A stretch of 24,679 nt of DNA from a virus (IMGVR_UViG_3300032319_000532:1-24679); one strand, 5' to 3'; positions 5,372-20,566 are shown, numbered from the stretch's first letter. Made by a program: numbers and translations. The notes: a model not told the origin generated them from the sequence alone.

Positions 5372-5553
5372 AGCTTAATTATAGCACACTATTTAAGTTT
5401 GATCAAAATGTGAATGGAATTTTAATTTGTATGATTCCATTTTTAAAATCGCTTTTTGAAAAAAAATAGAGCGCACATATGGACCAAATCGGACATTTTG
5501 TCTAATATGTGGGCTATATCACATAAATTTATTGCGACACGCCGTGTTTTAAC

Positions 5554-5582
5554 TTGACTTTTGGCAAATAGTGTGCTATAGT
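5554..5582 (+). promoter_or_regulatory. Housekeeping-sigma promoter
   Basis: TTGACT-N17-TATAGT with extended -10 TG, preceded by GCGACACGCC. Confidence 0.75.
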
Positions 5583-5632
5583 TATACTATAAAGAAAATC
5601 AAGAAAGGTTCTTGATAAAGAAAGGAATTCAA

Positions 5633-5776
5633 ATGAATTCACTATTTGAAAATAAAAATGTTCTAGGTCGTGCGTATGACCTAATCGCTTGCGATACCTG
5701 CGGTGGACTCACCGCTTGGACACGATGTGTAATGTGTGGCGGTGAATACGCTAAACATTCGCTAAATGTGAGGTAA
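5633..5776 (+). CDS. 47 aa zinc-ribbon-like microprotein
   Basis: AAGGA RBS; MNSLFENK...CDTC...CVMC. Confidence 0.65.
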   Translation: MNSLFENKNVLGRAYDLIACDTCGGLTAWTRCVMCGGEYAKHSLNVR

Positions 5777-5810
5777 ATCACATAGACACACCCCCTAAAA
5801 AGGGTCAAAA

Positions 5811-5832
5811 TGTCAGTCCCTAGTGCTATACT
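5811..5832 (+). promoter_or_regulatory. PafBC/RecA-NDp-type promoter
   Basis: TGTCAG-N10-TATACT. Confidence 0.8.
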
Positions 5833-5950
5833 AGCGACATAACTAAATAAAAGAAATCTTAGGTGAGCCCCTAGTAATAGGGCAAATAATCCTAAGCAAG
5901 GAAAATAGATAACACAAGGTTATCTAGTATAAAAGAAAGTAGGTCATAAA

Positions 5951-6175
5951 ATGACTAACTATAATAAAACAATTACTAATGAATTAGTAAGTGAGTATGG
6001 TATAGGTATCCTATCATCATCTCATAAGTCCCCCCTTCTCCCTATCCGTATCGCTCAGCGTATCGCTAACAGATACCCTAGTGATTTCTCACAGGGTCGC
6101 TATAATGCGACACTAAACCCTAAAGCGGTCATAATCGCTAAGCGATATATGTCCCTAGTAATGGGGGTCAAGTAA
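5951..6175 (+). CDS. Hypothetical protein
   Basis: 74 aa ORF with RBS. Confidence 0.65.
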   Translation: MTNYNKTITNELVSEYGIGILSSSHKSPLLPIRIAQRIANRYPSDFSQGRYNATLNPKAVIIAKRYMSLVMGVK

Positions 6176-6282
6176 TGACTAATAGAATAATTACTAGCCT
6201 AGTTCAATTAGCCTTAGCGGGTATTGTCATACCCCTATGCTATGCTATCTACCTAGACATAAAGAAAGGCGGACTAAACTAA
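6175..6282 (+). CDS. 35 aa membrane microprotein
   Basis: TAATG-coupled at both ends; hydrophobic core ITSLVQLALAGIVIPLCYAIYL. Confidence 0.55.
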   Translation: MTNRIITSLVQLALAGIVIPLCYAIYLDIKKGGLN

Positions 6283-6428
6283 TGGGATACACTTACTCTT
6301 GGGAAAAGACCTCTACTCTATCCCCCCTTGATTTCATACAAGACCAAAATGATATTTGGGAACAAGAAAACTCAGATGAGTTTCAGTTTATAGATACACC
6401 TGATTTTGACCCCGATGAAATCCTCTAA
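6282..6428 (+). CDS. 48 aa acidic microprotein
   Basis: AAGG RBS, TAATG coupling; MGYTYSWEK...DFDPDEIL. Confidence 0.6.
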   Translation: MGYTYSWEKTSTLSPLDFIQDQNDIWEQENSDEFQFIDTPDFDPDEIL

Positions 6429-6439
6429 ATTTGACAAAA

Positions 6440-6461
6440 TGTCAGACCCTAGTGATATACT
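6440..6461 (+). promoter_or_regulatory. PafBC/RecA-NDp-type promoter
   Basis: TGTCAG-N10-TATACT. Confidence 0.8.
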
Positions 6462-6498
6462 AGGAAATCAACCAACAAAAGAAAAGGAAAAAAAATAA

Positions 6499-6666
6499 AT
6501 GACAGTAGCAAATAAAACATACGCAATCGGCGACCTCTTTACTACACAGCGTAGTAATGTAACAGGAACAATTACAGAAATTGTCCCAGTAACAGAAAAC
6601 CGCACTCGTGTAAAGTTATCGCTTGATAATGGCGAATATCGCTGGACAACAGTAACAATCAAGTAA
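6499..6666 (+). CDS. 55 aa beta-rich (SH3/KOW-like) microprotein, paralog A
   Basis: MTVANKTYAIGDLFTTQRSNVTGTITEIVPVTENRTRVKLSLDNGEYRWTTVTIK; AAGGA RBS. Confidence 0.75.
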   Translation: MTVANKTYAIGDLFTTQRSNVTGTITEIVPVTENRTRVKLSLDNGEYRWTTVTIK

Positions 6667-6684
6667 GTTTAGCAAACGCTAAAA

Positions 6685-6712
6685 TATCCTGAGCAAGATA
6701 AAAAAAGGCTCA
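6685..6712 (+). ncRNA. H-type pseudoknot motif copy 1
   Basis: TATC-ctgagcaa-GATA-A6-gGCTCA. Confidence 0.6.
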
Positions 6713-6749
6713 ACACAAAACCCAACAAAAGAAAAGGATATAAAATATA

Positions 6750-6920
6750 ATGACACTACAAGGATACACTTACCAAATCGGAGATTTATTTACTACAAGC
6801 AAAACAGGCGTTACAGGTCGTATCGCTTCTTTCTCCCCGATTTCTAATAAAGTAACTCGTGTAAATTTAATTTTAGCAAATGGTTCACGCCGTTTCGCTA
6901 TGGTAAAAACAAGCAAGTAA
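6750..6920 (+). CDS. 56 aa beta-rich microprotein, paralog B
   Basis: MTLQGYTYQIGDLFTTSKTGVTGRIASFSPISNKVTRVNLILANGSRRFAMVKTSK. Confidence 0.75.
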   Translation: MTLQGYTYQIGDLFTTSKTGVTGRIASFSPISNKVTRVNLILANGSRRFAMVKTSK

Positions 6921-6936
6921 TGTTATACTAAATATA

Positions 6937-7015
6937 ATTAAGTGGGTCGGGCTTCGCTGAGTCTCGAGGCAAGAGTGCGAGTAAGTCTCCGTAATCAACC
7001 TATGCCCCACTTAAT
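6937..7015 (+). ncRNA. Candidate structured RNA or leader
   Basis: 10-bp closing stem ATTAAGTGGG/CCCACTTAAT starting ~7 nt after TGTTATACT. Confidence 0.4.
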
Positions 7016-7046
7016 CTATTAACTAAAGAAAAGGAAAAGAACAAAA

Positions 7047-7229
7047 ATGATGACAAGAAAAGACTATGTAGCAACCGCAGAAATTCTAAACTCTTATGGT
7101 GATGAAATTCCGCAACAAGTTTTTGAAGATTTAGTCTATGATTTTTCACAAATGTTTTCAGATGATAACGAAAAATTTGATAGCGATAGATTTCACGAAG
7201 AAGTTTATAAAAATCTAAAACACGCATAA
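7047..7229 (+). CDS. Hypothetical phage protein (MMTRKDY family), paralog A
   Basis: AAGGA RBS; similar to 9012..9206. Confidence 0.8.
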   Translation: MMTRKDYVATAEILNSYGDEIPQQVFEDLVYDFSQMFSDDNEKFDSDRFHEEVYKNLKHA

Positions 7230-7235
7230 AAAAAT

Positions 7236-7261
7236 AACCTGAGCAAGTTTCAAAACTGCTC
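7236..7261 (+). ncRNA. H-type pseudoknot motif copy 2
   Basis: AAC-ctgagcaa-GTT-tcaaaac-TGCTC. Confidence 0.55.
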
Positions 7262-7286
7262 CCAGCTTTTTCAAGATCATCAGCGT

Positions 7287-7302
7287 TCGAACATCTGTTC
7301 GA
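7287..7302. promoter_or_regulatory. Actinobacterial/Gram-positive LexA (SOS) box
   Basis: TCGAAC-atct-GTTCGA, perfect match to TCGAAC-N4-GTTCGA. Confidence 0.8.
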
Positions 7303-7323
7303 AAGCGTCGATGGATCGATGAG

Positions 7324-7356
7324 TTATCCACAGGTTTATACACAGGCTGTGGATTA
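7324..7356. promoter_or_regulatory. Cluster of three DnaA boxes
   Basis: TTATCCACA (7324), TTATACACA (7336), inverted TGTGGATTA (7348, 1 mismatch). Confidence 0.75.
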
Positions 7357-7358
7357 TT

Positions 7359-7380
7359 GTTCACCTGTTGTTCATCTTGA
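7359..7380 (+). promoter_or_regulatory. PhoP/RegX3-type (OmpR family) 11-bp direct repeat
   Basis: GTTCACCTGTT GTTCATCTTGA. Confidence 0.55.
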
Positions 7381-7403
7381 AATCCTGCGACACGCCGAGG
7401 AAA

Positions 7404-7425
7404 TGTCAGTGGTGCCTGTTATACT
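7404..7425 (+). promoter_or_regulatory. PafBC/RecA-NDp-type promoter
   Basis: TGTCAG-N10-TATACT. Confidence 0.8.
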
Positions 7426-7477
7426 TACAGCATAAAGAAAGTTGAGAAAGGTTCTCAAACTAGAAAGGTGGTCTAAA

Positions 7478-7651
7478 ATGACTACATATACACTAAACAC
7501 TCTCCCTGTAGAGTATGCAAATAAAATTGTTTGCGCCTTCTGTTCACAATACGCTAATGAAAATTTCTGCGTATCTTGTAATGAATACAAGGGTCTAATG
7601 ACTCTTGCAGAATTTATGTCCTACTATGAAATAAGTGAGTGGGTAAAATAA
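7478..7651 (+). CDS. Zinc-finger-like microprotein
   Basis: AAGGTGG RBS; CAFC...CVSC. Confidence 0.7.
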   Translation: MTTYTLNTLPVEYANKIVCAFCSQYANENFCVSCNEYKGLMTLAEFMSYYEISEWVK

Positions 7652-7863
7652 TGAGTAATATAGAAATATTCCGTATGGATAATAATGGTGCTGGTTGGGT
7701 AGATATTGAATCTGCCACTACCGCAGAATTATTGGATTTAGAATTAGCAATAACATTCAATGCTCCAATGCAAATGCAATGTTTCAAATGTCATACACCA
7801 ATTCCAAAAGGAAATGTGTGTGTAAATCACAAAAATGTAAAAGGAGGAATTTACCTTGGATAA
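7651..7863 (+). CDS. Zinc-finger-like microprotein
   Basis: TAATG coupling; CFKC...CVNH. Confidence 0.65.
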   Translation: MSNIEIFRMDNNGAGWVDIESATTAELLDLELAITFNAPMQMQCFKCHTPIPKGNVCVNHKNVKGGIYLG

Positions 7864-7969
7864 TAAAAATACAAAAGATATTTTTGGTTTTGCAGATGCA
7901 ATTGAAATTGAACATCTTAGCACTGAAGATTTAAAAATTGTTGAATTAATTTTTAAAGATTTCAAATAA
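7856..7969 (+). CDS. 37 aa hypothetical protein
   Basis: AGGAGG RBS before TTG; ends just before terminator. Confidence 0.5.
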   Translation: MDNKNTKDIFGFADAIEIEHLSTEDLKIVELIFKDFK

Positions 7970-7971
7970 AT

Positions 7972-8009
7972 AAAAAAAAGATTTGCAGTGTAACAGCTGC
8001 AAATTTTTT
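7972..8009 (+). terminator. Intrinsic terminator (repeated type)
   Basis: ATTTGCAG/CTGCAAAT stem plus T-run; same type at 9350 and 10536. Confidence 0.75.
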
Positions 8010-8230
8010 GATCGACGCACTCGGGCGTGTCGCATGTGATTAAGAACACATAAATATTTTTACGGAATACGGCGTGTCGGCTTGACTTTTGCGATATAGT
8101 GTGCTATAATACTCGTATATAAAATTAAATAATGGAATAAAGCGTGTGATGCAAATCACACCGCTGAGCGTCTCAAAGGTTGAGACTACCAGCCAGTATA
8201 CTAGACAGTAGCGATATTATCTGTTATACT
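7995..8230 (+). repeat. Regulatory cassette copy
   Basis: GATCGACGCACTCGGGCGTGTCGC core, CRP boxes 8035 and 8145, TTGACT-N17-TATAAT (8082), TCTCA-N5-TGAGA (8171), two TAC-N6-GTA, TAGACA-N17-TATACT. Confidence 0.8.
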
Positions 8231-8264
8231 TCCAGTATTAGAAAATAAAGAAAGGTGGTCTAAA

Positions 8265-8435
8265 ATGACTACACTAAATGAAACACTATTCAGCACAATC
8301 GTGCACGAATACCATAATGGCGGTGTCAAATCCTCTTATGGATTAGACGCTTACACTCGTAAAGAATTGCTAAAATTCTTATTCTCTAGCAAAGGTTGCT
8401 ATTGCATAAATTGTATCTCTAAGGAGTCTAAATAA
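8265..8435 (+). CDS. 56 aa hypothetical protein (CxCxxC)
   Basis: AAGGTGG RBS; TAATG coupling to next gene. Confidence 0.65.
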   Translation: MTTLNETLFSTIVHEYHNGGVKSSYGLDAYTRKELLKFLFSSKGCYCINCISKESK

Positions 8436-8674
8436 TGAGTCTCTCTCTTGCTAATAAATTGGCAGAAAATAAATTCTTTCTGCCCCCTTCAAAATATACT
8501 AACCACAAAGTCGTGGAAATAATTTCGCTAAATGACGAAACCAATACCGCTATGGTAAAACTTCAAAAATATGGAATTAGCAAAAGTGCTAATGCCGTAA
8601 AAGGTAATATAATAATCTTAGAATTACCTTATGCTGAATTCGAAAATCTAAATGGATGGGGTAAAAATAAATGA
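8435..8674 (+). CDS. Hypothetical protein
   Basis: AAGGAG RBS; 79 aa. Confidence 0.7.
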   Translation: MSLSLANKLAENKFFLPPSKYTNHKVVEIISLNDETNTAMVKLQKYGISKSANAVKGNIIILELPYAEFENLNGWGKNK

Positions 8675-8799
8675 ACCTTGATGAATATAAACAATATGTA
8701 GAGGCGCAACGCCTCTCATCTCTTGCAATAGCGTTAGACGCTCTCCGCAAATCAAATGCAATGATGGAAAAAAACGGTTACTTAGAGGAGAATAAATAA
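8671..8799 (+). CDS. 42 aa helical microprotein (MNLxEYK family), paralog A
   Basis: ATGA overlap; similar to 9568..9687. Confidence 0.65.
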   Translation: MNLDEYKQYVEAQRLSSLAIALDALRKSNAMMEKNGYLEENK

Positions 8800-9011
8800 T
8801 GACTATTAAAATTGGTGGGCTTGGTCAAGAGATTTCTTGCTATTGCCCAGTATGCTCAGAAAAAATGACTCATATGTGTATTGCTACTCTTGGCGGTATG
8901 CATAGAAAAGGCACAATCCGCTATGCGTGGCAATGCAATTCTTGCGAATTAGAATTAAAATCAGATGCAAATGGTTATGCTAAATTACTAAAAGAAATGG
9001 AAAATGTATAA
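8799..9011 (+). CDS. Zinc-ribbon-like protein
   Basis: GAGGAG RBS; CPVC...CNSC. Confidence 0.7.
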   Translation: MTIKIGGLGQEISCYCPVCSEKMTHMCIATLGGMHRKGTIRYAWQCNSCELELKSDANGYAKLLKEMENV

Positions 9012-9206
9012 ATGATGACTCGTAAAGACTATGTAAAAGTAGCAACAATCCTAAATGATATTGCTAAACCTAATATGGATATGATCCCGTTTGAGGATTT
9101 GGTAAATGAATTTGCAGATATGTTTTTTGCAGACAATCCAAATTTCTCTCCTAACCGATTTGAAATGGCTTGCTATGGTAACGATGAAATGGCGGATGTT
9201 AAATAA
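9012..9206 (+). CDS. Hypothetical phage protein (MMTRKDY family), paralog B
   Basis: MMTRKDYV...FEDLV..F..MF..DN..F...RF shared with 7047..7229. Confidence 0.8.
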   Translation: MMTRKDYVKVATILNDIAKPNMDMIPFEDLVNEFADMFFADNPNFSPNRFEMACYGNDEMADVK

Positions 9207-9346
9207 TGATTAACCTAACAAAAAAAGAAATTGGAACAATTATTTTTTCATTAGAGGAATATGCAAATATTCTTGAAATTCAAAACAGCATTGATGCAAG
9301 AAATAATATTTTTGAATTAATTTGGAAATTGGATGGTATAAAATAA
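9206..9346 (+). CDS. 46 aa hypothetical protein
   Basis: TAATG coupling; ends before terminator. Confidence 0.55.
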   Translation: MINLTKKEIGTIIFSLEEYANILEIQNSIDARNNIFELIWKLDGIK

Positions 9347-9349
9347 AAT

Positions 9350-9384
9350 AAAGATTTGCAGTTTGAAAAAGCTGCAAATTTTTT
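9350..9384 (+). terminator. Intrinsic terminator (repeated type)
   Basis: ATTTGCAG/CTGCAAAT stem plus T-run. Confidence 0.75.
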
Positions 9385-9514
9385 GATCGACGCACTCGGG
9401 CGTGTCGCCACGCTTACGTGCGATGTGATATTTATCACGGGGGATACGATGTGATATTTATCACACGGGTTGAGCGTCTCAAAATATGAAATTACTGGCT
9501 AGTAAGTAGCCAAA
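9370..9514 (+). repeat. Regulatory cassette copy
   Basis: 9370-9441 matches 10556-10627 at 70/72 nt; CRP boxes 9424 and 9450; TCTCA-N5-TGAAA; TTACTGGCTAGTAA. Confidence 0.85.
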
Positions 9515-9536
9515 TGTCAGTGGGTTTTGGTATACT
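9515..9536 (+). promoter_or_regulatory. PafBC/RecA-NDp-type promoter
   Basis: TGTCAG-N10-TATACT. Confidence 0.8.
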
Positions 9537-9567
9537 TGCCATATCAAGAAAGAAAGAAGGTCAAAGA

Positions 9568-9687
9568 ATGAACCTAGAGGAATATAAGGCGTATGTCCTA
9601 GCGACACGCAAAGAAAACGCATTGAAGGCTATGTCAGTGCTAAGTGCTACAATATCTACCAAGAAAGAAAAGGAAGGTGCTAACTAA
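9568..9687 (+). CDS. 39 aa microprotein (MNLxEYK family), paralog B
   Basis: AAGG RBS; MNLEEYKAYVLATRKENALKAMSVLSATISTKKEKEGAN. Confidence 0.65.
   Translation: MNLEEYKAYVLATRKENALKAMSVLSATISTKKEKEGAN
9632..9653 (+). promoter_or_regulatory. PafBC/RecA-NDp-type promoter (inside CDS)
   Basis: TGTCAG-N10-TACAAT. Confidence 0.75.
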
Positions 9688-9914
9688 TGGCAACTTATAA
9701 ATACAATATCCCTACACTACTAGAGGGAAAATACTATCGCTCACTCTCCCGTCATATTGACGGAATTATCCAATACGCAGAAAAGCGTGAAAATGTTTGG
9801 TATGGTCAAGGATTTGACGCATACCTTGTAAAAGTGCGCCCTACTTATAAAGGCGACGGAATATTCCGTAATGATTTTTACGCAACAGTTTGCGTTCAGA
9901 TGGAGGATAACTAA
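9687..9914 (+). CDS. Hypothetical protein
   Basis: 75 aa; RBS and TAATG coupling. Confidence 0.7.
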   Translation: MATYKYNIPTLLEGKYYRSLSRHIDGIIQYAEKRENVWYGQGFDAYLVKVRPTYKGDGIFRNDFYATVCVQMEDN

Positions 9915-10021
9915 TGAATATCTTTATCTGTTCTAATTGTGATACGCTTGCCACTGTGTCAGTGGCAGGTGATACAATACAAATAACAAAATGCTTATGT
10001 ATGTCAAGAAAGGACAACTAA
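9914..10021 (+). CDS. 35 aa Cys-rich microprotein
   Basis: GGAGG RBS; CSNC...CLC; coupled at both ends. Confidence 0.6.
   Translation: MNIFICSNCDTLATVSVAGDTIQITKCLCMSRKDN
9957..9978 (+). promoter_or_regulatory. PafBC/RecA-NDp-type promoter (inside CDS)
   Basis: TGTCAG-N10-TACAAT. Confidence 0.75.
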
Positions 10022-10206
10022 TGTCAAATATGAAAAATGCGTTAGAGCAAATCGTAAATTGCTCAGATTGCTATGGTCAAGGCGTAACTGGCTGGACTAG
10101 CCCTGATGGAGATTTTGATTTTGATTATTGCGATTGCAACCCATACAATATCCCCGCAGATGAGGTTGCGGAATATCATCAACTATTCGCAGGAAGCGAG
10201 GCTTAA
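10021..10206 (+). CDS. Small CxxCxGxG zinc-binding protein
   Basis: AAGGA RBS; CSDCYGQG...CDC. Confidence 0.7.
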   Translation: MSNMKNALEQIVNCSDCYGQGVTGWTSPDGDFDFDYCDCNPYNIPADEVAEYHQLFAGSEA

Positions 10207-10208
10207 CA

Positions 10209-10418
10209 ATGTATAAAATAACTGTAACCTATGACGAAAATCCCGCTCCTTATTTATCACTACAATACTCAGATGAATTGCAAGCACACAAAGAGTTTGC
10301 AAAGTTTGTTGATTGGGGATTTGCAGATAAATATTCTACTGTGAATCTTTACACGCCATCAGGCAAATGCTACACAAAAATATTTTATCGGGAAGGCAGA
10401 AGGGTTGTTGAAAAATAA
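10209..10418 (+). CDS. Hypothetical protein
   Basis: GAGG RBS; 69 aa. Confidence 0.7.
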   Translation: MYKITVTYDENPAPYLSLQYSDELQAHKEFAKFVDWGFADKYSTVNLYTPSGKCYTKIFYREGRRVVEK

Positions 10419-10422
10419 AATT

Positions 10423-10533
10423 ATGGAAAAAGTAAAACGCATTCAGGAGTTGCGTCGCAGTAATGCTGCGACTGCAATTCCGTCAAAGAAAAAATACACA
10501 CGCAAAAAAAAATATAAAAATAAATTTGAATAA
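10423..10533 (+). CDS. 36 aa highly basic peptide
   Basis: MEKVKRIQELRRSNAATAIPSKKKYTRKKKYKNKFE; ends before terminator. Confidence 0.6.
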   Translation: MEKVKRIQELRRSNAATAIPSKKKYTRKKKYKNKFE

Positions 10534-10535
10534 AT

Positions 10536-10570
10536 AAAAAAAGATTTGTGGCGCAAGCTGCAAATTTTTT
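10536..10570 (+). terminator. Intrinsic terminator (repeated type)
   Basis: ATTTGTGGC-gcaa-GCTGCAAAT plus T-run. Confidence 0.75.
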
Positions 10571-10673
10571 GATCGACGGGCTCGGGCGTGTCGCCACGCT
10601 TACGTGCGATGTGATATTTATCACGGGACTTTGTGTCTCATTATGAGAGACTTACGGCGTGTCGTGTTGATAA
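10556..10673 (+). repeat. Regulatory cassette copy
   Basis: Near-identical to 9370-9441; two GGCGTGTC; CRP box 10610. Confidence 0.85.
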
Positions 10674-10695
10674 TGTCAGTGCAACCTGATATACT
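10674..10695 (+). promoter_or_regulatory. PafBC/RecA-NDp-type promoter
   Basis: TGTCAG-N10-TATACT. Confidence 0.8.
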
Positions 10696-10723
10696 TCCAT
10701 TATTCCAAAAGAAAGGTAAACTA

Positions 10724-10909
10724 ATGAAAAAAGATAATTCTATTTCTATCTACGATGTATTCTCAGATGAGGATACTACTTGCTCAACTTGCATAGGCTT
10801 AGCCCTTGCTAACCCGTCTACCCTATGCGATACCCACTTTTTTGAGTGGGCGGAGGAAAAGGCTTATGGAGAACTAGAACGCTCCGAGGACTATTTCCAC
10901 CTAATCTAA
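10724..10909 (+). CDS. Small CxxC...CxxH protein
   Basis: AAGG RBS before ATG 10724. Confidence 0.65.
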   Translation: MKKDNSISIYDVFSDEDTTCSTCIGLALANPSTLCDTHFFEWAEEKAYGELERSEDYFHLI

Positions 10910-10910
10910 A

Positions 10911-10932
10911 TGTCAGTGCCCCCTGATATAAT
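10911..10932 (+). promoter_or_regulatory. PafBC/RecA-NDp-type promoter
   Basis: TGTCAG-N10-TATAAT. Confidence 0.8.
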
Positions 10933-10962
10933 ACTACTATCCCAACAACGAAAGGTTATCAA

Positions 10963-11247
10963 ATGATAGCAACTGCCCTGAAAATACAAAACGCTTCTGC
11001 GGAAGCCCTAATCTCAAATGAAGTTATGGAAGTCGCTCGTGAAGTCTCTATGGAATTATGCGATGGAGACTATTCTAAACTAAATCGTATTGCAGAACTT
11101 ATGTTCAAGTATTCTGCAACACTATCCGCTATGACCGCTACAACAGTGGCATATGCCTGCCTAGGTAATGATATGATGGATAAAATTGCAGATGAAATTC
11201 GAGAATTTGAAACACTAACCCAACAAATAGAAAAGGAAAATAACTAA
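10963..11247 (+). CDS. Hypothetical helical protein
   Basis: 94 aa; AAGG RBS. Confidence 0.75.
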   Translation: MIATALKIQNASAEALISNEVMEVAREVSMELCDGDYSKLNRIAELMFKYSATLSAMTATTVAYACLGNDMMDKIADEIREFETLTQQIEKENN

Positions 11248-11507
11248 TGAAAATGCACGACTTAGATACTAATGGATGGAATGCTTATCCGTTCGAGGTT
11301 GACGGAATAAAGTTTATTTCTAAAATCTCTCCAGACTCATCCTTCATGCCTAGAATCAAAATGCTACCTAGTGGCGTGTTTGAATCTATGAATCGCAGTG
11401 CAGTGCTTGACTTGATAGGTAAAGGCTTATCTCGTGAGGAAATTGCACAAGAACTATATCGTATAAACGCAGATGGCTCTCACGCCGTAATAGAATTGGA
11501 GATGTAA
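11247..11507 (+). CDS. Hypothetical protein
   Basis: 86 aa; AAGGA RBS. Confidence 0.7.
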   Translation: MKMHDLDTNGWNAYPFEVDGIKFISKISPDSSFMPRIKMLPSGVFESMNRSAVLDLIGKGLSREEIAQELYRINADGSHAVIELEM

Positions 11508-11510
11508 ATA

Positions 11511-11816
11511 ATGGGAAATGTATTTGCAACTGAATTATCAAATAGCGATATGGATATTCGCACTTCACTACGCATTCACTTAACGGGTAATCACTATCCA
11601 CCCGTCCCTGCATCCATGGTGGATGCATGTCTAGATACAATTGATGCATATCATGATGAAGACTATAACCGTCTAATCAAATTACCCGAAGGCGTATTTT
11701 GGCGTGGAGAAGATAGCGCTCCAGCAAATGCAATTGCAGAAGCGCACCACTTGGATAATTGGTTACCGCATGCACACTATTGCGACTGCGATGAATGCGT
11801 GTTTATTGATGAGTAA
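11511..11816 (+). CDS. Hypothetical phage protein
   Basis: 101 aa; GGAG RBS; HLTGNHYPPVP...HHLDNWL. Confidence 0.75.
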   Translation: MGNVFATELSNSDMDIRTSLRIHLTGNHYPPVPASMVDACLDTIDAYHDEDYNRLIKLPEGVFWRGEDSAPANAIAEAHHLDNWLPHAHYCDCDECVFIDE

Positions 11817-11949
11817 CGTTATGGAAATATTAGCGCAGTGGCATCCTGATGGAGACTTTACTGAAGAGGACCTATGGGATGCAATTGCAGAATCTGAAGG
11901 CGTTGACGTAAATGAAATCTCTGATCGTGACCTAACTGAATTTATCTAA
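11809..11949 (+). CDS. 46 aa acidic microprotein
   Basis: Overlaps upstream stop; MSNVMEILAQWHPDGDFTEEDLWDAIAESE. Confidence 0.6.
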   Translation: MSNVMEILAQWHPDGDFTEEDLWDAIAESEGVDVNEISDRDLTEFI

Positions 11950-12050
11950 GAGGGGCTAAATAAAAATGGGTAGCATTGCAGCGTACATATTGGTGTATGG
12001 GACCTTAGCTGCAGTGCTATCTTTTTTTTATTTTATTTTTAAAAATTAAT

Positions 12051-12208
12051 GGCGTGTCGCCTTGACATTCCCGAAAAAATGCGTCGACCCGCACTCGGGC
12101 GTGTCTGGGGATTACGTGTGGATAACCTTTACGTGTGATATTTCTCACACTGCGGGAGTGTGATAAATCTCACAAATGTTTATTCATCTTGGGATTCAAG
12201 TGGACAAA
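12051..12208 (+). repeat. Regulatory cassette copy
   Basis: Two GGCGTGTC, GTCGAC core, DnaA box TGTGGATAA (12117-12125), perfect CRP boxes 12134 and 12159. Confidence 0.8.
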
Positions 12209-12230
12209 TGTCAGTGCCTTATGTTATACT
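12209..12230 (+). promoter_or_regulatory. PafBC/RecA-NDp-type promoter
   Basis: TGTCAG-N10-TATACT. Confidence 0.8.
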
Positions 12231-12261
12231 CAATCTAACAAACAAAAGAAAGAAGGCTAAA

Positions 12262-13323: not shown

Positions 13324-13331
13324 AATTCGCA

Positions 13332-13359
13332 ACACCTGAGCAAGTGTATAAACTGCTCA
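13332..13359 (+). ncRNA. H-type pseudoknot motif copy 3
   Basis: ACAC-ctgagcaa-GTGT-ataaac-TGCTCA. Confidence 0.6.
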
Positions 13360-13366
13360 CCTTATT

Positions 13367-13440
13367 GGTCTGTTAGAATAGTTGGTTAGTTCGCCACCCT
13401 GTCACGGTGGAGGTCACGGGTTCAAGTCCCGTACAGATCG
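13367..13440 (+). tRNA. tRNA-Asp(GTC)
   Basis: Acceptor GGTCTGT/ACAGATC, anticodon stem CCACC/GGTGG with loop CTGTCAC, T arm ACGGG-TTCAAGT-CCCGT, discriminator G; no encoded CCA. Confidence 0.95.
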
Positions 13441-13449
13441 CAAAGCTTT

Positions 13450-13487
13450 GATTTATAAATATGCATTGCAATGTATAATTATACAGC
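13450..13487. promoter_or_regulatory. Tandem ARG boxes (ArgR-type)
   Basis: TTTAT-aaat-ATGCA and TGTAT-aatt-ATACA; two 18-mers 2 bp apart. Confidence 0.55.
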
Positions 13488-13489
13488 GC

Positions 13490-13584
13490 CGTCGACGGGC
13501 TCGGGCGTGTCGGGGATTACGTGATGAATCTCACATTACGGGAGCGTCTCAGATACTGGAATTACTGGCGGGTAGATAGATAAA
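13490..13584 (+). repeat. Regulatory cassette copy
   Basis: GTCGACGGGCTCGGGCGTGTCG, CRP box 13520, TCTCA-N5-TGGAA, TTACTGGCGGGTA. Confidence 0.8.
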
Positions 13585-13606
13585 TGTCAGTGCTATACGC
13601 TATAAT
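13585..13606 (+). promoter_or_regulatory. PafBC/RecA-NDp-type promoter
   Basis: TGTCAG-N10-TATAAT, ATG 7 nt downstream (leaderless). Confidence 0.8.
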
Positions 13607-13613
13607 TCTTGGT

Positions 13614-14285
13614 ATGACACAGAACTGGTTCAAATATGATTATGTATGCTCAATTTGTGATGCACTAATTGAAATTACTAATAAATCTAATGTATATAAA
13701 CCACATATGTGTTGTGGCATAGAGGCAAACTGGTTGTCAGTGGTCAATGCTACAATATACCCAACCGAAAAGAAAGAAGAAACCAATATGGAAACAACAA
13801 CACTTCGTGAACAAATTATTCAGGAAATGGAATTGCGTTATGGCAACGAAATTACTGAACTGAAAAATCAAATTGCTAATTCAACAATAAAATTAGACTT
13901 CGTTGAAAATGATGAAGTAACTACAAAATCATACAGCGAGTCAGATGTTCGTGCTTTGGTTTATCGTGATAAATCTTATCAAACAAAAATGAACGAATAC
14001 TATCGTAAAGAAAGCCAACTTCGCACACTACTTGAAAATGTTTATGCTGATTCTAACGAACAAGATACACTTACAGAAATTGCTGAAATCTTTGATGTTC
14101 CACTAACTAAGGAAATTGAAGTAACCGCTTATATCCGTGTTGATATGACTATTGAAATTGATATGGCAGAAGGCGACTATGATATTGAAGATATGGTTCG
14201 TAACCAACTAACTGTTGATTCATTTGGTTCAGAGATTAGCGTCAATGACTACAATGTAGACCGAGTAGAAGAAGGTGCTTACTAA
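13614..14285 (+). CDS. Hypothetical protein with N-terminal Cys motif and probable internal start at 13788
   Basis: Leaderless ATG 13614; CSIC...CCG; internal promoter 13735 and in-frame ATG 13788. Confidence 0.75.
   Translation: MTQNWFKYDYVCSICDALIEITNKSNVYKPHMCCGIEANWLSVVNATIYPTEKKEETNMETTTLREQIIQEMELRYGNEITELKNQIANSTIKLDFVENDEVTTKSYSESDVRALVYRDKSYQTKMNEYYRKESQLRTLLENVYADSNEQDTLTEIAEIFDVPLTKEIEVTAYIRVDMTIEIDMAEGDYDIEDMVRNQLTVDSFGSEISVNDYNVDRVEEGAY
13735..13756 (+). promoter_or_regulatory. PafBC/RecA-NDp-type promoter (inside CDS)
   Basis: TGTCAG-N10-TACAAT. Confidence 0.75.
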
Positions 14286-14512
14286 TGGCAGTTATTACCC
14301 TACAAGTCCCTTCCCGTGCCCAAATGGGCTACGGGTTGGGCAAGGCTATGCAGTTTGGCGTTGAATATGAAGTGCTAGATAATCTTCAGGTTGAACTAAC
14401 TTCAGCAGATGAACTAAAACTGGCTAAGATGATGGTAGCCTTTCAAGGCAAAATTGTAGATTCCGTGATCCAAAAAAATGTCCGTGTAGACCACCCAAGA
14501 CACGAGTCATAA
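14285..14512 (+). CDS. Hypothetical protein
   Basis: 75 aa; TAATG coupling. Confidence 0.7.
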   Translation: MAVITLQVPSRAQMGYGLGKAMQFGVEYEVLDNLQVELTSADELKLAKMMVAFQGKIVDSVIQKNVRVDHPRHES

Positions 14513-14534
14513 TGTCAGACCCCCCTGCTATAAT
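14513..14534 (+). promoter_or_regulatory. PafBC/RecA-NDp-type promoter
   Basis: TGTCAG-N10-TATAAT. Confidence 0.8.
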
Positions 14535-14540
14535 AGGGGG

Positions 14541-14600
14541 TAACGAAACAGGGGCAGTTTGCTAGAGTTCTAGCCCAATGTCGTAAGTAAGAACTAGCAC
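14541..14600 (+). ncRNA. Candidate small structured RNA
   Basis: Sits between two promoters with no ORF; AAAC/GTTT hairpin, TGCTAG..GTTCT/AGAAC-TAGCA stem, loop-loop GGGC/GCCC. Confidence 0.4.
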
Positions 14601-14609
14601 CTAAGTTTA

Positions 14610-14631
14610 TGTCAGACCCCTCTGATATAAT
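14610..14631 (+). promoter_or_regulatory. PafBC/RecA-NDp-type promoter
   Basis: TGTCAG-N10-TATAAT. Confidence 0.8.
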
Positions 14632-14664
14632 AATCCATAACAACCCAACTAACAAAGGAAAAAA

Positions 14665-15081
14665 ATGAGTAGAGCAATCACAGTAAAGGTGGCAACACCA
14701 AAGGTAATCAAGGCACTAGAAACTCGTCTAGCAACACTAGAAAAAGACTACGCCTCACAAGAAGCCAACGAAGCAAAGTATAACAAGGCGCACGAAGCGT
14801 GGAAAAAGCAAATTGGCGAGTGGGCTATTGCCAACTTCTCAAAGGCTGAAAACCTACGCACAAGTTATCGCTCTTGGAGTAATAATCTAAATGTAGATTT
14901 TGATATTACTGTAAAGGAAGGCAATTTCCCTACTGAGCCTGAGCGTGATTTTGAGCAAATTCATCAGCACACTTATCGTGAGATGAAAGAGGATATTACT
15001 AACGCCCTCACAATTCTCAAGATGACAGATGAGGAAACAGTAAATGCTTCTACTATGAAGCAAATCGCTAAGTATCTCTAA
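14665..15081 (+). CDS. Hypothetical phage protein (coiled-coil N-terminus)
   Basis: 138 aa; AAGGA RBS. Confidence 0.8.
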   Translation: MSRAITVKVATPKVIKALETRLATLEKDYASQEANEAKYNKAHEAWKKQIGEWAIANFSKAENLRTSYRSWSNNLNVDFDITVKEGNFPTEPERDFEQIHQHTYREMKEDITNALTILKMTDEETVNASTMKQIAKYL

Positions 15082-15087
15082 TAGGCT

Positions 15088-15117
15088 TGGGGGACTCTTT
15101 GGGGAGTCCCCCACTTT
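15088..15117 (+). terminator. GC-rich hairpin, probable terminator
   Basis: TGGGGGACTC/GAGTCCCCCA right after stop codon. Confidence 0.55.
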
Positions 15118-15157
15118 CCCACTTTACAAGAACTAGAAAATAGGATAGGATAGGCAA

Positions 15158-15226
15158 ATGACAAACTTCATAATTCTAGCCGTAATAGCAATCGCACTTC
15201 TAATCGCTTTTGGGGGGATAATCTAA
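15158..15226 (+). CDS. 22 aa transmembrane peptide
   Basis: MTNFIILAVIAIALLIAFGGII; abuts next start. Confidence 0.45.
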   Translation: MTNFIILAVIAIALLIAFGGII

Positions 15227-15601
15227 ATGGGAGCACGAGTCAATTTTGTATTCAAGACAAACAAAGAACAAACCTATTTAGTTTTATACTCACATTGGGG
15301 CGAAACATCTTGGCGACAAGATTTGGCTTCAGCACTTGATAAAGCAAGACCACGCTGGACAGATGATTCATATTGTTTGCGAATTATTATAGACCAACTA
15401 ACAAGAGAAGGTCGGGATTCAGAAACTGGATTCGGAATCTTTTTAGCAAACAGAGATGAATTATCATTTTTAGATTCACCTGTAATTATTGACACACAAG
15501 CAATGTGGGTTGAAGATGGTGGAACAGAACATTCGTGGAATTCGTTTTGCGAATATCACTTGGAAGAAATTCCAAACAATCACGATTTTACAAACGTGTA
15601 A
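15227..15601 (+). CDS. Hypothetical phage protein
   Basis: 124 aa; MGARVNF...LYSHWG. Confidence 0.75.
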   Translation: MGARVNFVFKTNKEQTYLVLYSHWGETSWRQDLASALDKARPRWTDDSYCLRIIIDQLTREGRDSETGFGIFLANRDELSFLDSPVIIDTQAMWVEDGGTEHSWNSFCEYHLEEIPNNHDFTNV

Positions 15602-15708
15602 ATAAAGTTGGGTGGGGTGTAAAAACCCCACTTCAATTCGCCAGGCTGATTAGGGCGATCACAGAAATACTATAGAGCACAGTTGGTGGAGGACTGAAAG
15701 AATCCGCA

Positions 15709-15736
15709 ATTCCTAAGCATGAATCAAAAAGGCTTA
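15709..15736 (+). ncRNA. H-type pseudoknot motif copy 4
   Basis: ATTC-ctaagcat-GAAT-caaaaag-GCTTA; compensatory change in stem 2. Confidence 0.6.
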
Positions 15737-15749
15737 TTTTTTTTTGCAA

Positions 15750-15901
15750 AGCTGCGGGTCGATTTTGAAAATCAGACAAATCAGACATTACGTAAATGTA
15801 TATTTAATCACGGGGATTATGAAGGTGTGATAAATATCACGGGTATTACGTCTCATATAATGATATCCTACTAGACAGTAACTTTTACGATATGGTATTA
15901 T
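15750..15901 (+). repeat. Degenerate regulatory cassette
   Basis: GTCGA, TTACG-N16-CACGGG, CRP box 15826, TCTCA-N5-TGATA, TACTAGACAGTA, TAGACA-N18-TATTAT. Confidence 0.65.
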
Positions 15902-16837: not shown

Positions 16838-16867
16838 AGCATAATCAACCAACAGAAAGGTAATACA

Positions 16868-18166: not shown

Positions 18167-18389
18167 TGAATCCTGGTGTGCCTCATGTGGTGCAGGTATG
18201 CACTACACAGCAGATGAGACTGCGGTATGTGGTGAATGTGCACATAACGAAATCCTAGGCTATATAAAGCAACGCAAAGAAGAATTAGAAGCAGACTATG
18301 ATATGACTACAGAAGTAGATATGGCTCATTACTATGAAGGTGGTATTGAAGTCCTTGATGAGATACTAACTAAATTTGGAGGATACTAA
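18153..18389 (+). CDS. Acidic zinc-finger-like protein
   Basis: CASC...CGEC; GAGGAG RBS. Confidence 0.7.
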   Translation: MGMYDESWCASCGAGMHYTADETAVCGECAHNEILGYIKQRKEELEADYDMTTEVDMAHYYEGGIEVLDEILTKFGGY

Positions 18390-18604
18390 TGGCTGAGCAA
18401 TTTATAGATACAATAGCAGAGCACATTACAGGTGCAATGCAACAAGAAATTGCAGAACACTTATTTGACCAATGGTCTGCAAAAAATTGTGATGAGGGTC
18501 CTGATTACGCAGAGCATATGTTTATGCAATTTGCGTCAGATGACCTAAAGCAACAGTATAACGAATACTATGGCTATATTGAGGGAGATGAGTTTCTACT
18601 ATGA
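18389..18604 (+). CDS. Acidic hypothetical protein
   Basis: GGAGG RBS; 71 aa. Confidence 0.7.
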   Translation: MAEQFIDTIAEHITGAMQQEIAEHLFDQWSAKNCDEGPDYAEHMFMQFASDDLKQQYNEYYGYIEGDEFLL

Positions 18605-18777
18605 TGTTAGGATATGATATAGAAGATATTAGCATTATGCAGGAATGCATAGAGACTGCTAAAAAGTTTTACCTATCTCATCCCTCCGATCTAATGGATA
18701 AAACAAGAATTACAACTGGATTGGAGCAAGCCAATTCATTCTTTGATGGCCTATGGGCAGAAGGATACTTTGACTAA
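18601..18777 (+). CDS. 58 aa hypothetical protein
   Basis: ATGA overlap; MMLGYDIED...GLWAEGYFD. Confidence 0.6.
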   Translation: MMLGYDIEDISIMQECIETAKKFYLSHPSDLMDKTRITTGLEQANSFFDGLWAEGYFD

Positions 18778-18799
18778 TGTCAGTTGTATCTTGTATAAT
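18778..18799 (+). promoter_or_regulatory. PafBC/RecA-NDp-type promoter
   Basis: TGTCAG-N10-TATAAT. Confidence 0.75.
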
Positions 18800-18823
18800 C
18801 AATATCCCAACTACTAAAGGACA

Positions 18824-18958
18824 ATGATGAAAATCAAAAAGAAAACAATGAAACAACTTCAAGACCAAGCAAGTCAAATTGCTTACTTTGATGAAAATGA
18901 AAAACAAACCCTAGATAGACTTATCCATATCTATAAGGCTGGAGCAAAACGTAAATGA
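18824..18958 (+). CDS. 44 aa basic hypothetical protein
   Basis: AAGGA RBS; ATGA coupling. Confidence 0.55.
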   Translation: MMKIKKKTMKQLQDQASQIAYFDENEKQTLDRLIHIYKAGAKRK

Positions 18959-19314
18959 CTATATATGAGGTTGAACTAATGGACCTACAGGAAAGAACTA
19001 GAATGTTAGACACTTATCGTGATGTTGAAGATATCATAGATAAGATTAGTAGTCTTTCTGTATTCCCGTCCCTGGTTTGGGTATGGTGTTGGGATGTTAT
19101 CAAGGACCTGTGGACTACCATTATGGAGGGGCAGGAAGAAGAATACTGCACAGCAATGGACCTAGATGAAGTATGGGAACTATACTGGATTCAAGCAGAT
19201 AAGAATGGCTTTACATTAGAATATGGGCCCGAAGCGCTATATGACCATATCCGTGATTGGATGATAGATGAATCTATTATCATAGAAGCGGAGGAAGAAG
19301 ATGAGGATGAGTAA
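18955..19314 (+). CDS. Very acidic, Trp-rich hypothetical protein
   Basis: 119 aa ending EAEEEDEDE. Confidence 0.75.
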   Translation: MTIYEVELMDLQERTRMLDTYRDVEDIIDKISSLSVFPSLVWVWCWDVIKDLWTTIMEGQEEEYCTAMDLDEVWELYWIQADKNGFTLEYGPEALYDHIRDWMIDESIIIEAEEEDEDE

Positions 19315-19472
19315 TGGATGAGAAGACATTAATTAGTCTAACATTGGCCAAATCTTTTATAGACCAAGGTCATGAGGGTATCGCCAAAAGCATCATTCAT
19401 AAACTACTTATAGATAACGGACTTGACGAAAGCCAAGAAGATGTGATAGACTCAAACCCGAAAGAGGTGTAA
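19314..19472 (+). CDS. 52 aa hypothetical protein
   Basis: GAGG RBS; TAATG coupling. Confidence 0.5.
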   Translation: MDEKTLISLTLAKSFIDQGHEGIAKSIIHKLLIDNGLDESQEDVIDSNPKEV

Positions 19473-19473
19473 T

Positions 19474-19767
19474 ATGGCAAGCGTTGACCAAAAACTGCAC
19501 GATAAGATTGCTGCGGGGTTTGCGGACCAGAGAGTATCTACCGCTATTATGGCCCTAAAGATGACAAGAGAAAACAGACACGTAAATGAGGCTATGCTTG
19601 GTTATATAGTAAATTATATAATCATTATGGCGGAACAAGAACTGGTGCCATTTCCATTGGTAGAAGTTCAGCAGATATGTAAGCAACTCAAATTTGCTCT
19701 AGAAGATTTAGGGCTAACAGGAATTGTCAGAAAAGATGAACCTATGAACGAGTTCATGCTGACATAA
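19474..19767 (+). CDS. Hypothetical protein
   Basis: 97 aa; GAGGTG RBS; TTGACG-N18-TAGACT upstream. Confidence 0.7.
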   Translation: MASVDQKLHDKIAAGFADQRVSTAIMALKMTRENRHVNEAMLGYIVNYIIIMAEQELVPFPLVEVQQICKQLKFALEDLGLTGIVRKDEPMNEFMLT

Positions 19768-19802
19768 AGGGCGTTCAGGCTATTTCACCGCCGAGTCCAG
19801 CA

Positions 19803-19835
19803 AAGACCTCCACATGTTGGGTGTGGGGGTCTTCT
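19803..19835 (+). terminator. Hairpin closing the + strand island
   Basis: AAGACCTCCACA/TGTGGGGGTCTT. Confidence 0.55.
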
Positions 19836-19873
19836 GCATTTCCAAAACGACAACGACAGCGATCACTTTTCAG

Positions 19874-20395
19874 ACATTACGAACGCAGCTAAAAATTCAC
19901 GGGACTTTTTTTAAACATTACGAACGGGGCGGGAATTTCACGGGAGATCCAATATCCACTATCACCTAGAGTAATATAGATCCATATAGATGTATATAAA
20001 GATATGCAGACATTACGAACATATCATAAAATTCACGGGAAGTCAAGCATATAAAGTGTGATGTTGATCATATAATGTATACAAAAATAGAGATACATTA
20101 AATGTGATCAAATTCACACAATATATCTCAATATATGGACAATATTGCCCTATTTTGTATACATTTTGACCTATTTTGTCCAGTTTATAGGCATATTTTA
20201 TGTGATATTTATCACACATTTTATGCGTAATATGGACTTGACATTACGATGGGCGATATGGTACGCTCTATATCATGGTAAGATGTATATCTAAATATAC
20301 ACTGATGTTATTCTCTCCTAATATGATATTATTCTCCACTTTACTCCACTTTGCTCCATATCTAGACATTACGATAGGGCTATAAAATTCACGGG
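19874..20395 (-). repeat. Four copies of bipartite motif ACATTACG-N16-CACGGG
   Basis: 19874-19903, 19915-19944, 20010-20039, 20366-20395; variable spacer of fixed length. Confidence 0.8.
20334..20359 (-). promoter_or_regulatory. MraZ-type triple direct repeat
   Basis: Minus strand ATGGAG-caaa-GTGGAG-taaa-GTGGAG, 10-bp period. Confidence 0.55.
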
Positions 20396-20566
20396 AGTTT
20401 GTAAAATTCACCACAATAAGCACATATAAGCTTTTGATCTTGTAGTATCATCTTGTGCTTACACTCTGGTGGCACTTGATTTATATGACCTAAATAATGT
20501 ATTATCATTTAATTTTAAATAGTATAACAACTACTGCAATGCATAACCATATAATTAAAGATTGAC

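Follow-up and report, generated by a model that had tools for sequence, protein, structure and literature searches.

The window analyzed in this work, i.e., the whole stretch of DNA under study, is one viral contig of 24,679 nt (IMGVR_UViG_3300032319_000532:1-24679) which contains an island of small genes. About 48 open reading frames (ORFs; median 61 amino acids) and one tRNA-Asp gene are located on the plus strand between positions 5633 and 19767, confirming the co-oriented microgene island claimed in a preliminary description of this DNA. The ORF list has 50 entries, as it includes the tRNA and counts one frame of 223 amino acids as two. Most island proteins have no family assignment, and a scan of the window with Rfam returned the tRNA only. 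The island carries 17 PafBC-type promoters, together with CRP- and WhiA-type sites set at fixed distances from them and operators of repressor type which lie out of their reach. We propose that host activators drive the gene block and that the out-of-reach sites act as sinks once the phage genome has multiplied, a joint reading to which, from sequence evidence, we would give an even chance.

Motif counts refer to positions 5450-20400 and were compared with 300 dinucleotide shuffles. The relatives analyzed were the best 80 of 193 IMG/VR loci with a DUF932 gene, giving 81 loci with the window; 35 of the relatives span the whole island and were used for per-locus motif presence, and five near-complete genomes were used for protein-family checks.

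Promoters of the island

The 17 promoters have the form TGTCAG-N10-TANNNT and occupy the plus strand between 5811 and 18799, with starts at 5811, 6440, 7404, 9515, 9632, 9957, 10674, 10911, 12209, 13585, 13735, 14513, 14610, 16329, 16816, 17728, and 18778. When searched as TGTC[AG]G-N10-TANNNT, the motif gave 17 matches in the island, all on the plus strand, against a shuffle mean of 0.27 and none in the 9.7 kb outside, while the controls with spacers of 9 and 11 nt gave none in the island. All 80 relatives carry it, with 1025 sense copies and a single antisense copy (1042 to 1 with the window), versus 11 matches for the 9-nt spacer (six plus, five minus) and nine for the 11-nt spacer (two plus, seven minus) in the family including the window. 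In three near-complete relatives 9 of 13, 11 of 13, and 14 of 16 copies were inside the island, as were all 17 copies of CGACACGC.

The position of the motif fits that of a promoter. In 834 of 1042 cases it was leaderless or placed 15-32 nt before a start led by a ribosome site, versus 354 of 3240 other TANNNT hexamers, and five of the 17 copies in the window are located inside the preceding ORF yet stand at the usual leader distance from the next start. An extended -10 TG was present in 15 of the 17, and TG at -15/-14 was found in 75%/85% of 431 non-redundant promoter contexts of the family. No -35 was conserved in these contexts (13 of 431 have TTGAC there), and the minority of promoters with a -35 are hybrids. 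The published consensus of PafBC is tGTCgg(N10)tA(N3)T, at promoters without a conserved -35 to which PafBC binds together with RNA polymerase (PMC8635444); the phage promoters have the same tGTCgg-type element at -28..-23, the exact 10-nt spacer and no conserved -35. RuvC is named as a member of the PafBC regulon (PMC8223512), and a RecA-NDp promoter has been reported in Streptomyces (PMC9411070). A reading of the -26 element as a WhiA site was ruled out, since TGTC is preceded by a G in only 5% of cases.

A scan of viral contigs with a tighter PafBC-type consensus produced 69 scattered single matches. A PafBC-type promoter before ssb in two relatives was discarded, as only three of 112 ssb loci had one; the ssb promoters of the relatives are extended -10 promoters alone, and in nearly all relatives shown (L316-L427) a hairpin or palindrome of variable sequence stands behind this extended -10. 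Ordinary sigma-A-type promoters with -35 and -10 are also present on the plus strand of the window, at 5554-5582, 8082-8110, 8202-8230, and 15872-15901.

Sites phased to the promoters

The palindrome GTGA-N6-TCAC occurs 11 times in the island (22 over both strands, shuffle mean 0.37). Nine CRP/GlxR-type sites, at 5768, 8146, 9425, 9451, 10611, 12135, 12160, 13521, and 15827 (overall 5768..15840), are centered -64.5 to -111.5 from the next promoter, and seven of the nine are on the helical phase of the family. Throughout the family the CRP centers peak at -54.5, -64.5, -74.5, -85, and about -96; the phasing to the promoter gave R = 0.67 at 10.5 bp for 135 sites (uniform null maximum 0.27), was still R = 0.53 when the sites were reduced to one for each combination of offset and downstream gene family (72 entries, 34 families), and disappeared beyond -90 (R = 0.16). 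The assignment was made with TGTGA-N6-TCACA, which we take to be the CRP/GlxR consensus; the inner bases are T..A, unlike in Rex-type sites. Two further CRP-type palindromes were seen in the left flank at 2533 and 4835, and likewise left of the island in one near-complete relative (G001).

The WhiA 9-mer CGACACGCC was found nine times in the island versus a shuffle mean of 0.01, at 5535, 7388 (plus), 8024, 8071, 9399, 10585, 10656, 12051, and 13504 (minus; 5535 being plus; overall 5535..13512), while the bare 5-mer GACAC was not enriched in the island (26 versus a shuffle mean of 17.2 and maximum of 30). Proximal WhiA boxes stand at -40 to -50 and distal ones end a GC-rich cassette behind terminators; in the family the preferred slots are -42 for reverse boxes (28 of 106) and -50 for forward boxes (13 of 57). 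Published WhiA consensus sequences are GACACGCC and CGACACGCCGn (PMC13473873), and GACACGCC was found on either strand near the -35 position of the phage promoters. A remark in the same paper about a WhiA peak 42 bp upstream of recA P1 matches the -42 slot; the two distances are hard to reconcile and no weight was given to it.

Two more motifs keep a fixed slot at PafBC-type promoters: one of the GTCTCA-N5-TGAGAC type (8170, 9476, 13546, and 15850) at -60.5, and one of the TACT-N4-AGTA type (8187, 8199, 9493, 13563, and 15869) at -44.5, the two together spanning 8170..15880. A direct repeat of GGACA with a 9-bp period was noted at 5481-5500; in the relatives it is often at -53.5, including several spacers of L001, and it is common to the Streptomyces phage Jay2Jay. 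The helically phased slots of CRP and WhiA beside promoters which start genes argue for activation and not for a pure decoy.

Sites out of reach of the promoters

A second group of sites stands away from the promoters. One perfect Gram-positive LexA box (CGAAC-N4-GTTCG, the single such site of the island) occupies 7286..7303, centered 137 nt upstream of the next promoter, and agrees with the consensus tCGAAC-N4-GNNCGa (PMC9380542). It opens an edge-to-edge stack at 7286-7396, in the order LexA, three DnaA-type boxes, PhoP-like repeat and WhiA. The DnaA-type boxes (7324..7356) are spaced 3 nt apart, two being strict and one a near-match to what we take to be the DnaA consensus, and another strict box is at 12117; the three strict boxes are within the range of island-wide shuffles (maximum 5), and those of the relatives are unphased, mostly at -80 to -180. 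The PhoP/RegX3-like 11-nt direct repeat (7359..7374, plus), which was assigned by a consensus presumed to consist of GTTCACC-type 11-nt repeats, is not conserved, being found in none of the 35 full loci and as two distinct intergenic copies in the 81 loci. A tandem pair of ARG boxes with a 20-nt period is located at 13449..13488, just after the tRNA-Asp gene, with 134.5 nt from the center of the downstream box to the PafBC-type promoter that follows. The box sequence used here is the one we assume for ArgR; the single-box pattern was not enriched in the island (two versus a shuffle mean of 1.06), and 16 of 27 distinct boxes had a partner at 20 nt. This is the geometry of ArgR operators, which consist of two contiguous 20-nt ARG boxes (PMC5839063).

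In spacer-only shuffles the observed count was reached in 0 of 1000 for DnaA, the ARG pair and MraZ, in one for LexA and in three for PhoP. Presence in the 35 full loci was nine for LexA, seven for the ARG pair, seven for the RosR-like palindrome, 27 for MraZ, and 32 for at least two DnaA boxes. In 130 kb of dereplicated spacers observed versus expected counts were 143 to 1.4 for CRP, 166 to 1.2 for WhiA, 76 to 6.8 for DnaA, 10 to 0.3 for LexA, and 15 to 0.8 for ARG, and PhoP was found once; 12 control patterns were flat there (Escherichia coli LexA, Fur, CcpA, Spo0A, FNR, PhoB, GlnR, MtrA, HspR, HrcA, IdeR, and Rex), CtrA was borderline (20 versus 11.8, maximum 18), and the pattern used for NrdR in the motif panel gave no boxes. 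The RosR-like palindrome, TAGTTGAA-N2-TTCAACTA, fills the distal slot in 27 loci of relatives (e.g., L005, L007, L012, and L033) and is absent from the window; it also occurs before a bacterial doxX gene (L236, 375-358, minus). We take it to resemble the RosR box of Corynebacterium glutamicum.

The distance of these operators from promoters is a family trait. None of 45 distinct repressor-type sites (9 LexA, 24 ARG, and 12 RosR-like, with a few of the LexA matches in coding sequence) was within -45..+25 of a PafBC-type promoter, and only one overlapped any sense sigma-A-like promoter, versus 648 of 2072 random spacer positions (31%). No LexA box of the family overlapped or abutted a promoter (0 of 9), and the single overlap of the sigma-A-like scan was an ARG site (1 of 24). 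In the bacterial loci L186, L187, and L236, on the other hand, the -10 is followed by a LexA box at a distance of 0-1 nt. The phage LexA, ARG and RosR-like operators are located behind a terminator, hairpin, stop codon or tRNA and ahead of the GC cassette that ends in a WhiA box. Among 17 genomes, copies of this cassette are 80% identical within a genome and 47% between genomes.

Another module consists of a WhiA box followed by a perfect TTGACA without a -10 behind it, as at 12051..12067 on the plus strand, i.e., a half promoter or a double WhiA site. Such modules were present in 69 of the 81 loci; in sense orientation 51 of 54 had no -10, as had all 26 antisense modules, versus a -10 in 27 of 27 cases where the WhiA box stands 3 nt before a weaker -35 (TTGAT[AT] or TTGACT). 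For the sense modules no phasing to the promoter downstream was seen (R = 0.12, n = 44, after removal of eight distant sites). GACA is recognized by WhiA in much the same way as by sigma domain 4 (PMC10243135), and the modules could therefore serve as dead-end docking sites or as double WhiA sites.

The island is closed by a non-coding block (19768..20560) with ACATTACG...TTCACGGG repeats, two CRP-type palindromes (20104 and 20202) and a conserved sigma-A-like promoter without an ORF behind it (20238-20267). On the minus strand at 20334..20359 it holds a MraZ-type triple GTGGAG repeat with 4-nt spacers, the third copy having one mismatch; this triple is present in 29 of 41 long loci, in most relatives 94-96 nt past the conserved promoter motif. 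The consensus of three GTGG[A/T]G with 4-nt spacers is that of Bacillus subtilis MraZ (bioRxiv 2022.02.09.479790), and our literature search found no paper on an actinobacterial MraZ. The repeat was also considered as a structured small RNA and gave no folding signal (z 0.08); it may be an unstructured anti-Shine-Dalgarno RNA. Repeats of TTACGA...TTC[AC]CGGGA were seen at 15785-15843 and 19874-20396 and in L001 at ~600-700 and 10520, and are common to the terminal repeat of Jay2Jay, where repeats similar to those of the end block stand near the left end; they are a candidate terminus or packaging motif of the phage lineage. Perfect copies of parS, by the consensus we assume for it, were found in 14 of the 80 relatives, mostly at either edge of the island (L004, L006, L008, L011, L014, L022, L023, L027, L028, L055-L058, and L062), and none in the window.

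Eight motif classes had been listed in the preliminary description as matches to published consensus sites, with some of them far from any promoter. Seven of the eight are real and recur in the family, PhoP/RegX3 being a one-off. The identities stand by published consensus or geometry for PafBC, WhiA, LexA, MraZ and the 20-nt ARG pair, and by the consensus assumed here for CRP and DnaA, and fell for PhoP/RegX3. The remoteness from promoters was borne out by the repressor-type operators.

Candidate readers and relatives

None of the five near-complete relatives encodes a WYL, PafC-type helix-turn-helix (HTH), Crp-type HTH or WhiA-type HTH protein, and no known activator was found among the 123 non-island proteins of one of them. 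WhiB is encoded in all five, and a sigma4-like HTH protein of 48 amino acids was seen in four. The gene of the latter (L313, 1468-1614) follows ruvC in G001-G004 and is a candidate phage reader of the unassigned motifs. No tyrosine integrase was found in the five genomes.

When 4 of 64 metagenome parts were scanned for WhiA together with the PafBC motif, 130 loci were identified. Sixty of these had several motifs and a low GC content like the phages studied here, and many single matches look like chance. Among 59 downstream ORFs scanned, those of high-GC loci included ruvC, dinB, a DEDDh/GIY-YIG nuclease, three DUF222 proteins and a SWIM protein. Locus L236 (48% GC) has a WhiA-like word, TGTCGG-N10-TATCTT and a perfect LexA box ahead of a DUF6504 gene, whose product has a 73% homolog named from Ca. 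Nanopelagicaceae. WhiA with a PafBC-type promoter was also seen before GP88 and DUF7178 genes in low-GC loci (L114, L123, L126, L134, and L154), which suggests that further phage groups use this promoter.

The island is bordered on the left by genes for a class II ribonucleotide reductase, a glycosyltransferase and an HNH endonuclease, and on the right by genes of the minus strand. The HNH gene (4991..5371, minus) marks the island edge, comparable to gp26 inside the terminal repeat of Jay2Jay, and a DUF932 gene (12262..13323, plus) is the anchor common to the Streptomyces cluster BE and BK phages. The best cultured matches of the DUF932 protein, at ~50% identity, are in the terminal repeats of BE phages. 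When reversed, the window parallels the left end of Jay2Jay in the order island, HNH, glycosyltransferase and ribonucleotide reductase. The terminal repeat of Jay2Jay is 11,438 bp, as determined from a duplicated-match offset of 122,093; those of BE phages are 11-12 kb, and these phages are presumed virulent (PMC10690885). The arrangement fits an island which stands where Streptomyces BE phages (Stanwilliamsviridae) have their long terminal repeat, and the early, terminal and "first-injected" position that we infer for it rests on this synteny. The depth of Logan contigs along the stretch was 10.4, then 15-23, then 13.5, without a two-fold step, and one contig spans the right edge. Sequencing runs which contain parts of the stretch include some labelled as freshwater or lake metagenomes, and the hosts are likely to be lake actinobacteria; a scan of genome contigs for the host gave six loci, none labelled as actinobacterial.

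Discussion

In the mechanism that we propose, sigma-A RNA polymerase would give basal initiation through the extended -10. Single-stranded DNA (ssDNA) derived from infection would then activate host PafBC, which would read the -26 element and boost the block; such a boost is expected because ssDNA activates PafBC (PMC11804915). CRP on one helical face (-54.5, -64.5, -74.5, -85, and -95.5) would add a carbon-state input to each unit, and WhiA at -42 or -50 a cell-cycle input. We consider these three steps quite probable. In a fourth step LexA, ArgR, MraZ and, in relatives, RosR-like operators, together with DnaA boxes, WhiA plus -35 modules and parS, placed where they could not occlude promoters, would titrate their proteins away from the host chromosome, mainly after the phage genome has multiplied; that a sink is the right account of these sites we put somewhat below an even chance. 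Tentative in its entirety is the picture of a lytic phage with a takeover block run by the ssDNA alarm of PafBC and joined to a modular DNA sponge which would pull master regulators away from the host chromosome during phage replication, and equally tentative is its corollary that repair, arginine supply, redox defence, replication and division would be reprogrammed without any phage protein.

Several observations weigh against this account. The relatives are mutually related, and p-values therefore overstate independence. The -26 element of the phages prefers TGTCAG (86% A), versus TGTCGG in the published consensus and most bacterial loci; the PafBC motif is described as not conserved in S. 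venezuelae (PMC9380542) and is thus not universal, and PMC6789036 does not mention Nanopelagicales. The relatives encode WhiB and the 48-amino-acid HTH protein, which could read some of the sites. In the window a 10-of-12 sigma-70-type match overlaps the ARG pair, and there is an overlap of the MraZ repeat with a sequence resembling a promoter. With one copy each and a scattered occurrence (nine and seven of the 35 full loci), LexA and ARG sites are weak as a sink, and the antisense modules (reverse WhiA plus TGTCAA) keep a helical phase relative to the promoter that follows (R = 0.63, n = 24, after removal of one distant site), so that they may be enhancer-like and not dead ends.

The single-copy operators could alternatively be roadblock valves at which a bound repressor or DnaA, behind a weak terminator, halts read-through from the upstream unit until the host signal removes it, the promoters again being activator-driven. 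Such valves would suit these operators better than a sink does, as one copy per genome suffices; LexA, ARG and RosR-like boxes share one slot, with a stop codon, hairpin or tRNA directly in front and the GC cassette behind, all units are co-oriented, and the CCTGAGCA hairpins have low stability (about -4 to -12 kcal/mol). We nevertheless find valves unlikely: slot content and following gene vary between relatives, and parS, the MraZ repeat of the end block without an ORF behind it, and the orientation-free WhiA plus TTGACA modules do not fit. At the other extreme, every array would be a decoy or would coat the first-injected DNA with protein, and none would take part in transcribing the island. 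This notion can point to the edge-to-edge stacking at 7286-7396, to parS and DnaA boxes at the island edges and to the precedent of DnaA boxes in the T5 terminal repeat (10.1101/866236). It is highly improbable, however, given that the strand bias of 1042 to 1, the leader lengths and the helical phasing are promoter properties which a decoy does not need, and that PafBC binds with RNA polymerase at promoters (PMC8635444). The preference for decoy or loading voiced in the preliminary description found no support for the main sites, which are strand-specific at leader distance (PafBC-type) or phased (CRP), and survives as a possibility for the second layer of repressor operators, DnaA boxes, WhiA plus -35 modules and parS of relatives.

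Two other explanations dispense with host regulators as readers. A phage-encoded, MotA-like activator might read these boxes, the -26 element among them, and their likeness to host consensus sequences would then be convergence or an inherited relic. WhiB and the small HTH protein of the relatives are candidates for such a role, a family is lacking for most island proteins and an assigned reader for several of the fixed-slot motifs, and two motifs are common to Jay2Jay; this is improbable, however, as the element with its 10-nt spacer is the host PafBC consensus and is also found before bacterial repair genes, the five relatives lack WYL and PafC-type HTH proteins, and independent matches in the geometry of WhiA, LexA, ARG, MraZ and parS would be hard to explain. 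The island might instead consist of constitutive extended -10 early promoters in PeSL-like recombination cassettes with homogenized words which host regulators do not read. The TG frequencies, the extended -10 promoters of ssb, the GC cassettes more alike within than between genomes, and the fact that only 459 of 766 adjacent gene pairs remain adjacent in relatives would agree with this. Homogenization leaves unexplained, however, the offsets by whole helical turns and the fixed 10-nt spacer of variable sequence, and the same words are conserved across genomes with differing cassettes, making this explanation quite improbable.

The closest known system is that of PafBC-dependent (RecA-NDp) actinobacterial promoters, with tGTC at -28..-23, a 10-nt spacer, a sigma-A -10 and no conserved -35 (PMC8635444, PMC11804915, PMC8223512). 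The promoters described here differ in being on a phage, in 5-20 copies per locus, before unknown small genes, as an A-variant and stacked with CRP and WhiA sites, and the phage LexA boxes are far upstream and not beside the -10 as in bacterial PafBC promoters. Precedents for co-option of host regulators include Spo0A sites and Spo0J entrapment in phi29, CtrA in alphaproteobacterial phages and LexA in temperate phages (PMC9437464). The likeness to co-opting lytic phages consists in sites for host master regulators in phage promoters and, in some relatives, parS-type loading; in contrast to these precedents, with one regulator each, at least six host site types are present here in modular cassettes, repressor sites are out of reach, and the core promoter itself belongs to an activator-dependent host class. 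Sigma-A promoters co-activated by WhiA and WhiB are similar in having GACACGCC in either orientation upstream of the -35 region, with WhiB encoded in our relatives (PMC10243135, PMC13473873), whereas most phage WhiA plus TTGACA modules have no -10 and many WhiA boxes are distal. The PeSL cassettes of the T4-type phages RB49 and phi1 share the repeated units of terminator and promoter between shuffled small genes but have plain sigma-70 promoters, with no host-regulator arrays described in the abstract (PMC2839356). The T5 left terminal repeat likewise has DnaA boxes in a non-coding early region, as one ordered cluster of eight (10.1101/866236) versus 0-10 per locus here, in pairs or trios across spacers. 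With the terminal repeats of Streptomyces BE phages the island has in common gene order, DUF932, the HNH gene at the edge, spacer cassettes and the TTACGA and CGGACA words, while in Jay2Jay and Wofford the promoters of the repeat are of the TTG..-18-TAGACT type and have no more than a partial TGTCC. PafBC-type and CRP arrays were absent from all five cultured soil relatives (Grayson, Dorin, Gilson, Wofford, and Jay2Jay), in which CRP sites numbered 0-1 and PafBC-type matches 0-4, versus 1-5 with the reversed control for the latter.

A literature search that lacked most subscription papers found no report of phage PafBC promoters, judged by title and start of abstract among the papers listed, no paper on WhiB promoters of Nanopelagicales phages and none on WhiA or CRP sites in actinobacteriophage terminal repeats. 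In known phages host regulators are borrowed singly, while here several host signals appear to be integrated in each gene unit, and a widespread family of lake phages appears to have made a host stress-activator promoter its main promoter class. If this is true, infection itself trips PafBC and an anti-damage sensor becomes a tool of the phage, and non-coding phage DNA would act directly on host regulons. The collection of operators would at the same time be a read-out of the regulators used by uncultured hosts.

Other features of the window

A conserved, strand-specific hairpin, CCTGAGCAAG-N-TGCTC, follows stop codons on the plus strand at 6688, 7238, and 13335 (span 6688..13360). In the general form CCTGAGCA[AT]G-N-AAACTGCTC it is found past stop codons in 71 of the 81 loci, with 119 sense versus two antisense copies; Rfam returned no match for it, and it is possibly an RNA element or operator. 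Elements resembling terminators, with A-tract, hairpin and T-tract, are located on the plus strand near 7981, 9355, and 10545.

Two paralog pairs are near-universal: 6499-6666/6750-6920, a 55-amino-acid SH3/KOW-type barrel, and 7047-7229/9012-9206, a three-helix protein of 60 amino acids. Both families were considered as hidden activators and set aside, having generic structural matches only (6499: best Z 6.9, rmsd 2.0, 53 aligned; 7047: best Z 7.2, rmsd 2.5, 60 aligned). Two ESM Atlas searches with conserved island proteins returned unnamed viral clusters only. Outside the island the protein at 23764-24678 looks secreted, has a long Pro/Glu-rich tail which runs off the end of the contig, and matched no family. 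The 223-amino-acid frame (13614-14285) has a leaderless start and an internal PafBC-type promoter with a ribosome site at 13788; its two halves are fused in all 29 relatives which have both, and two N-terminal isoforms are therefore likely.

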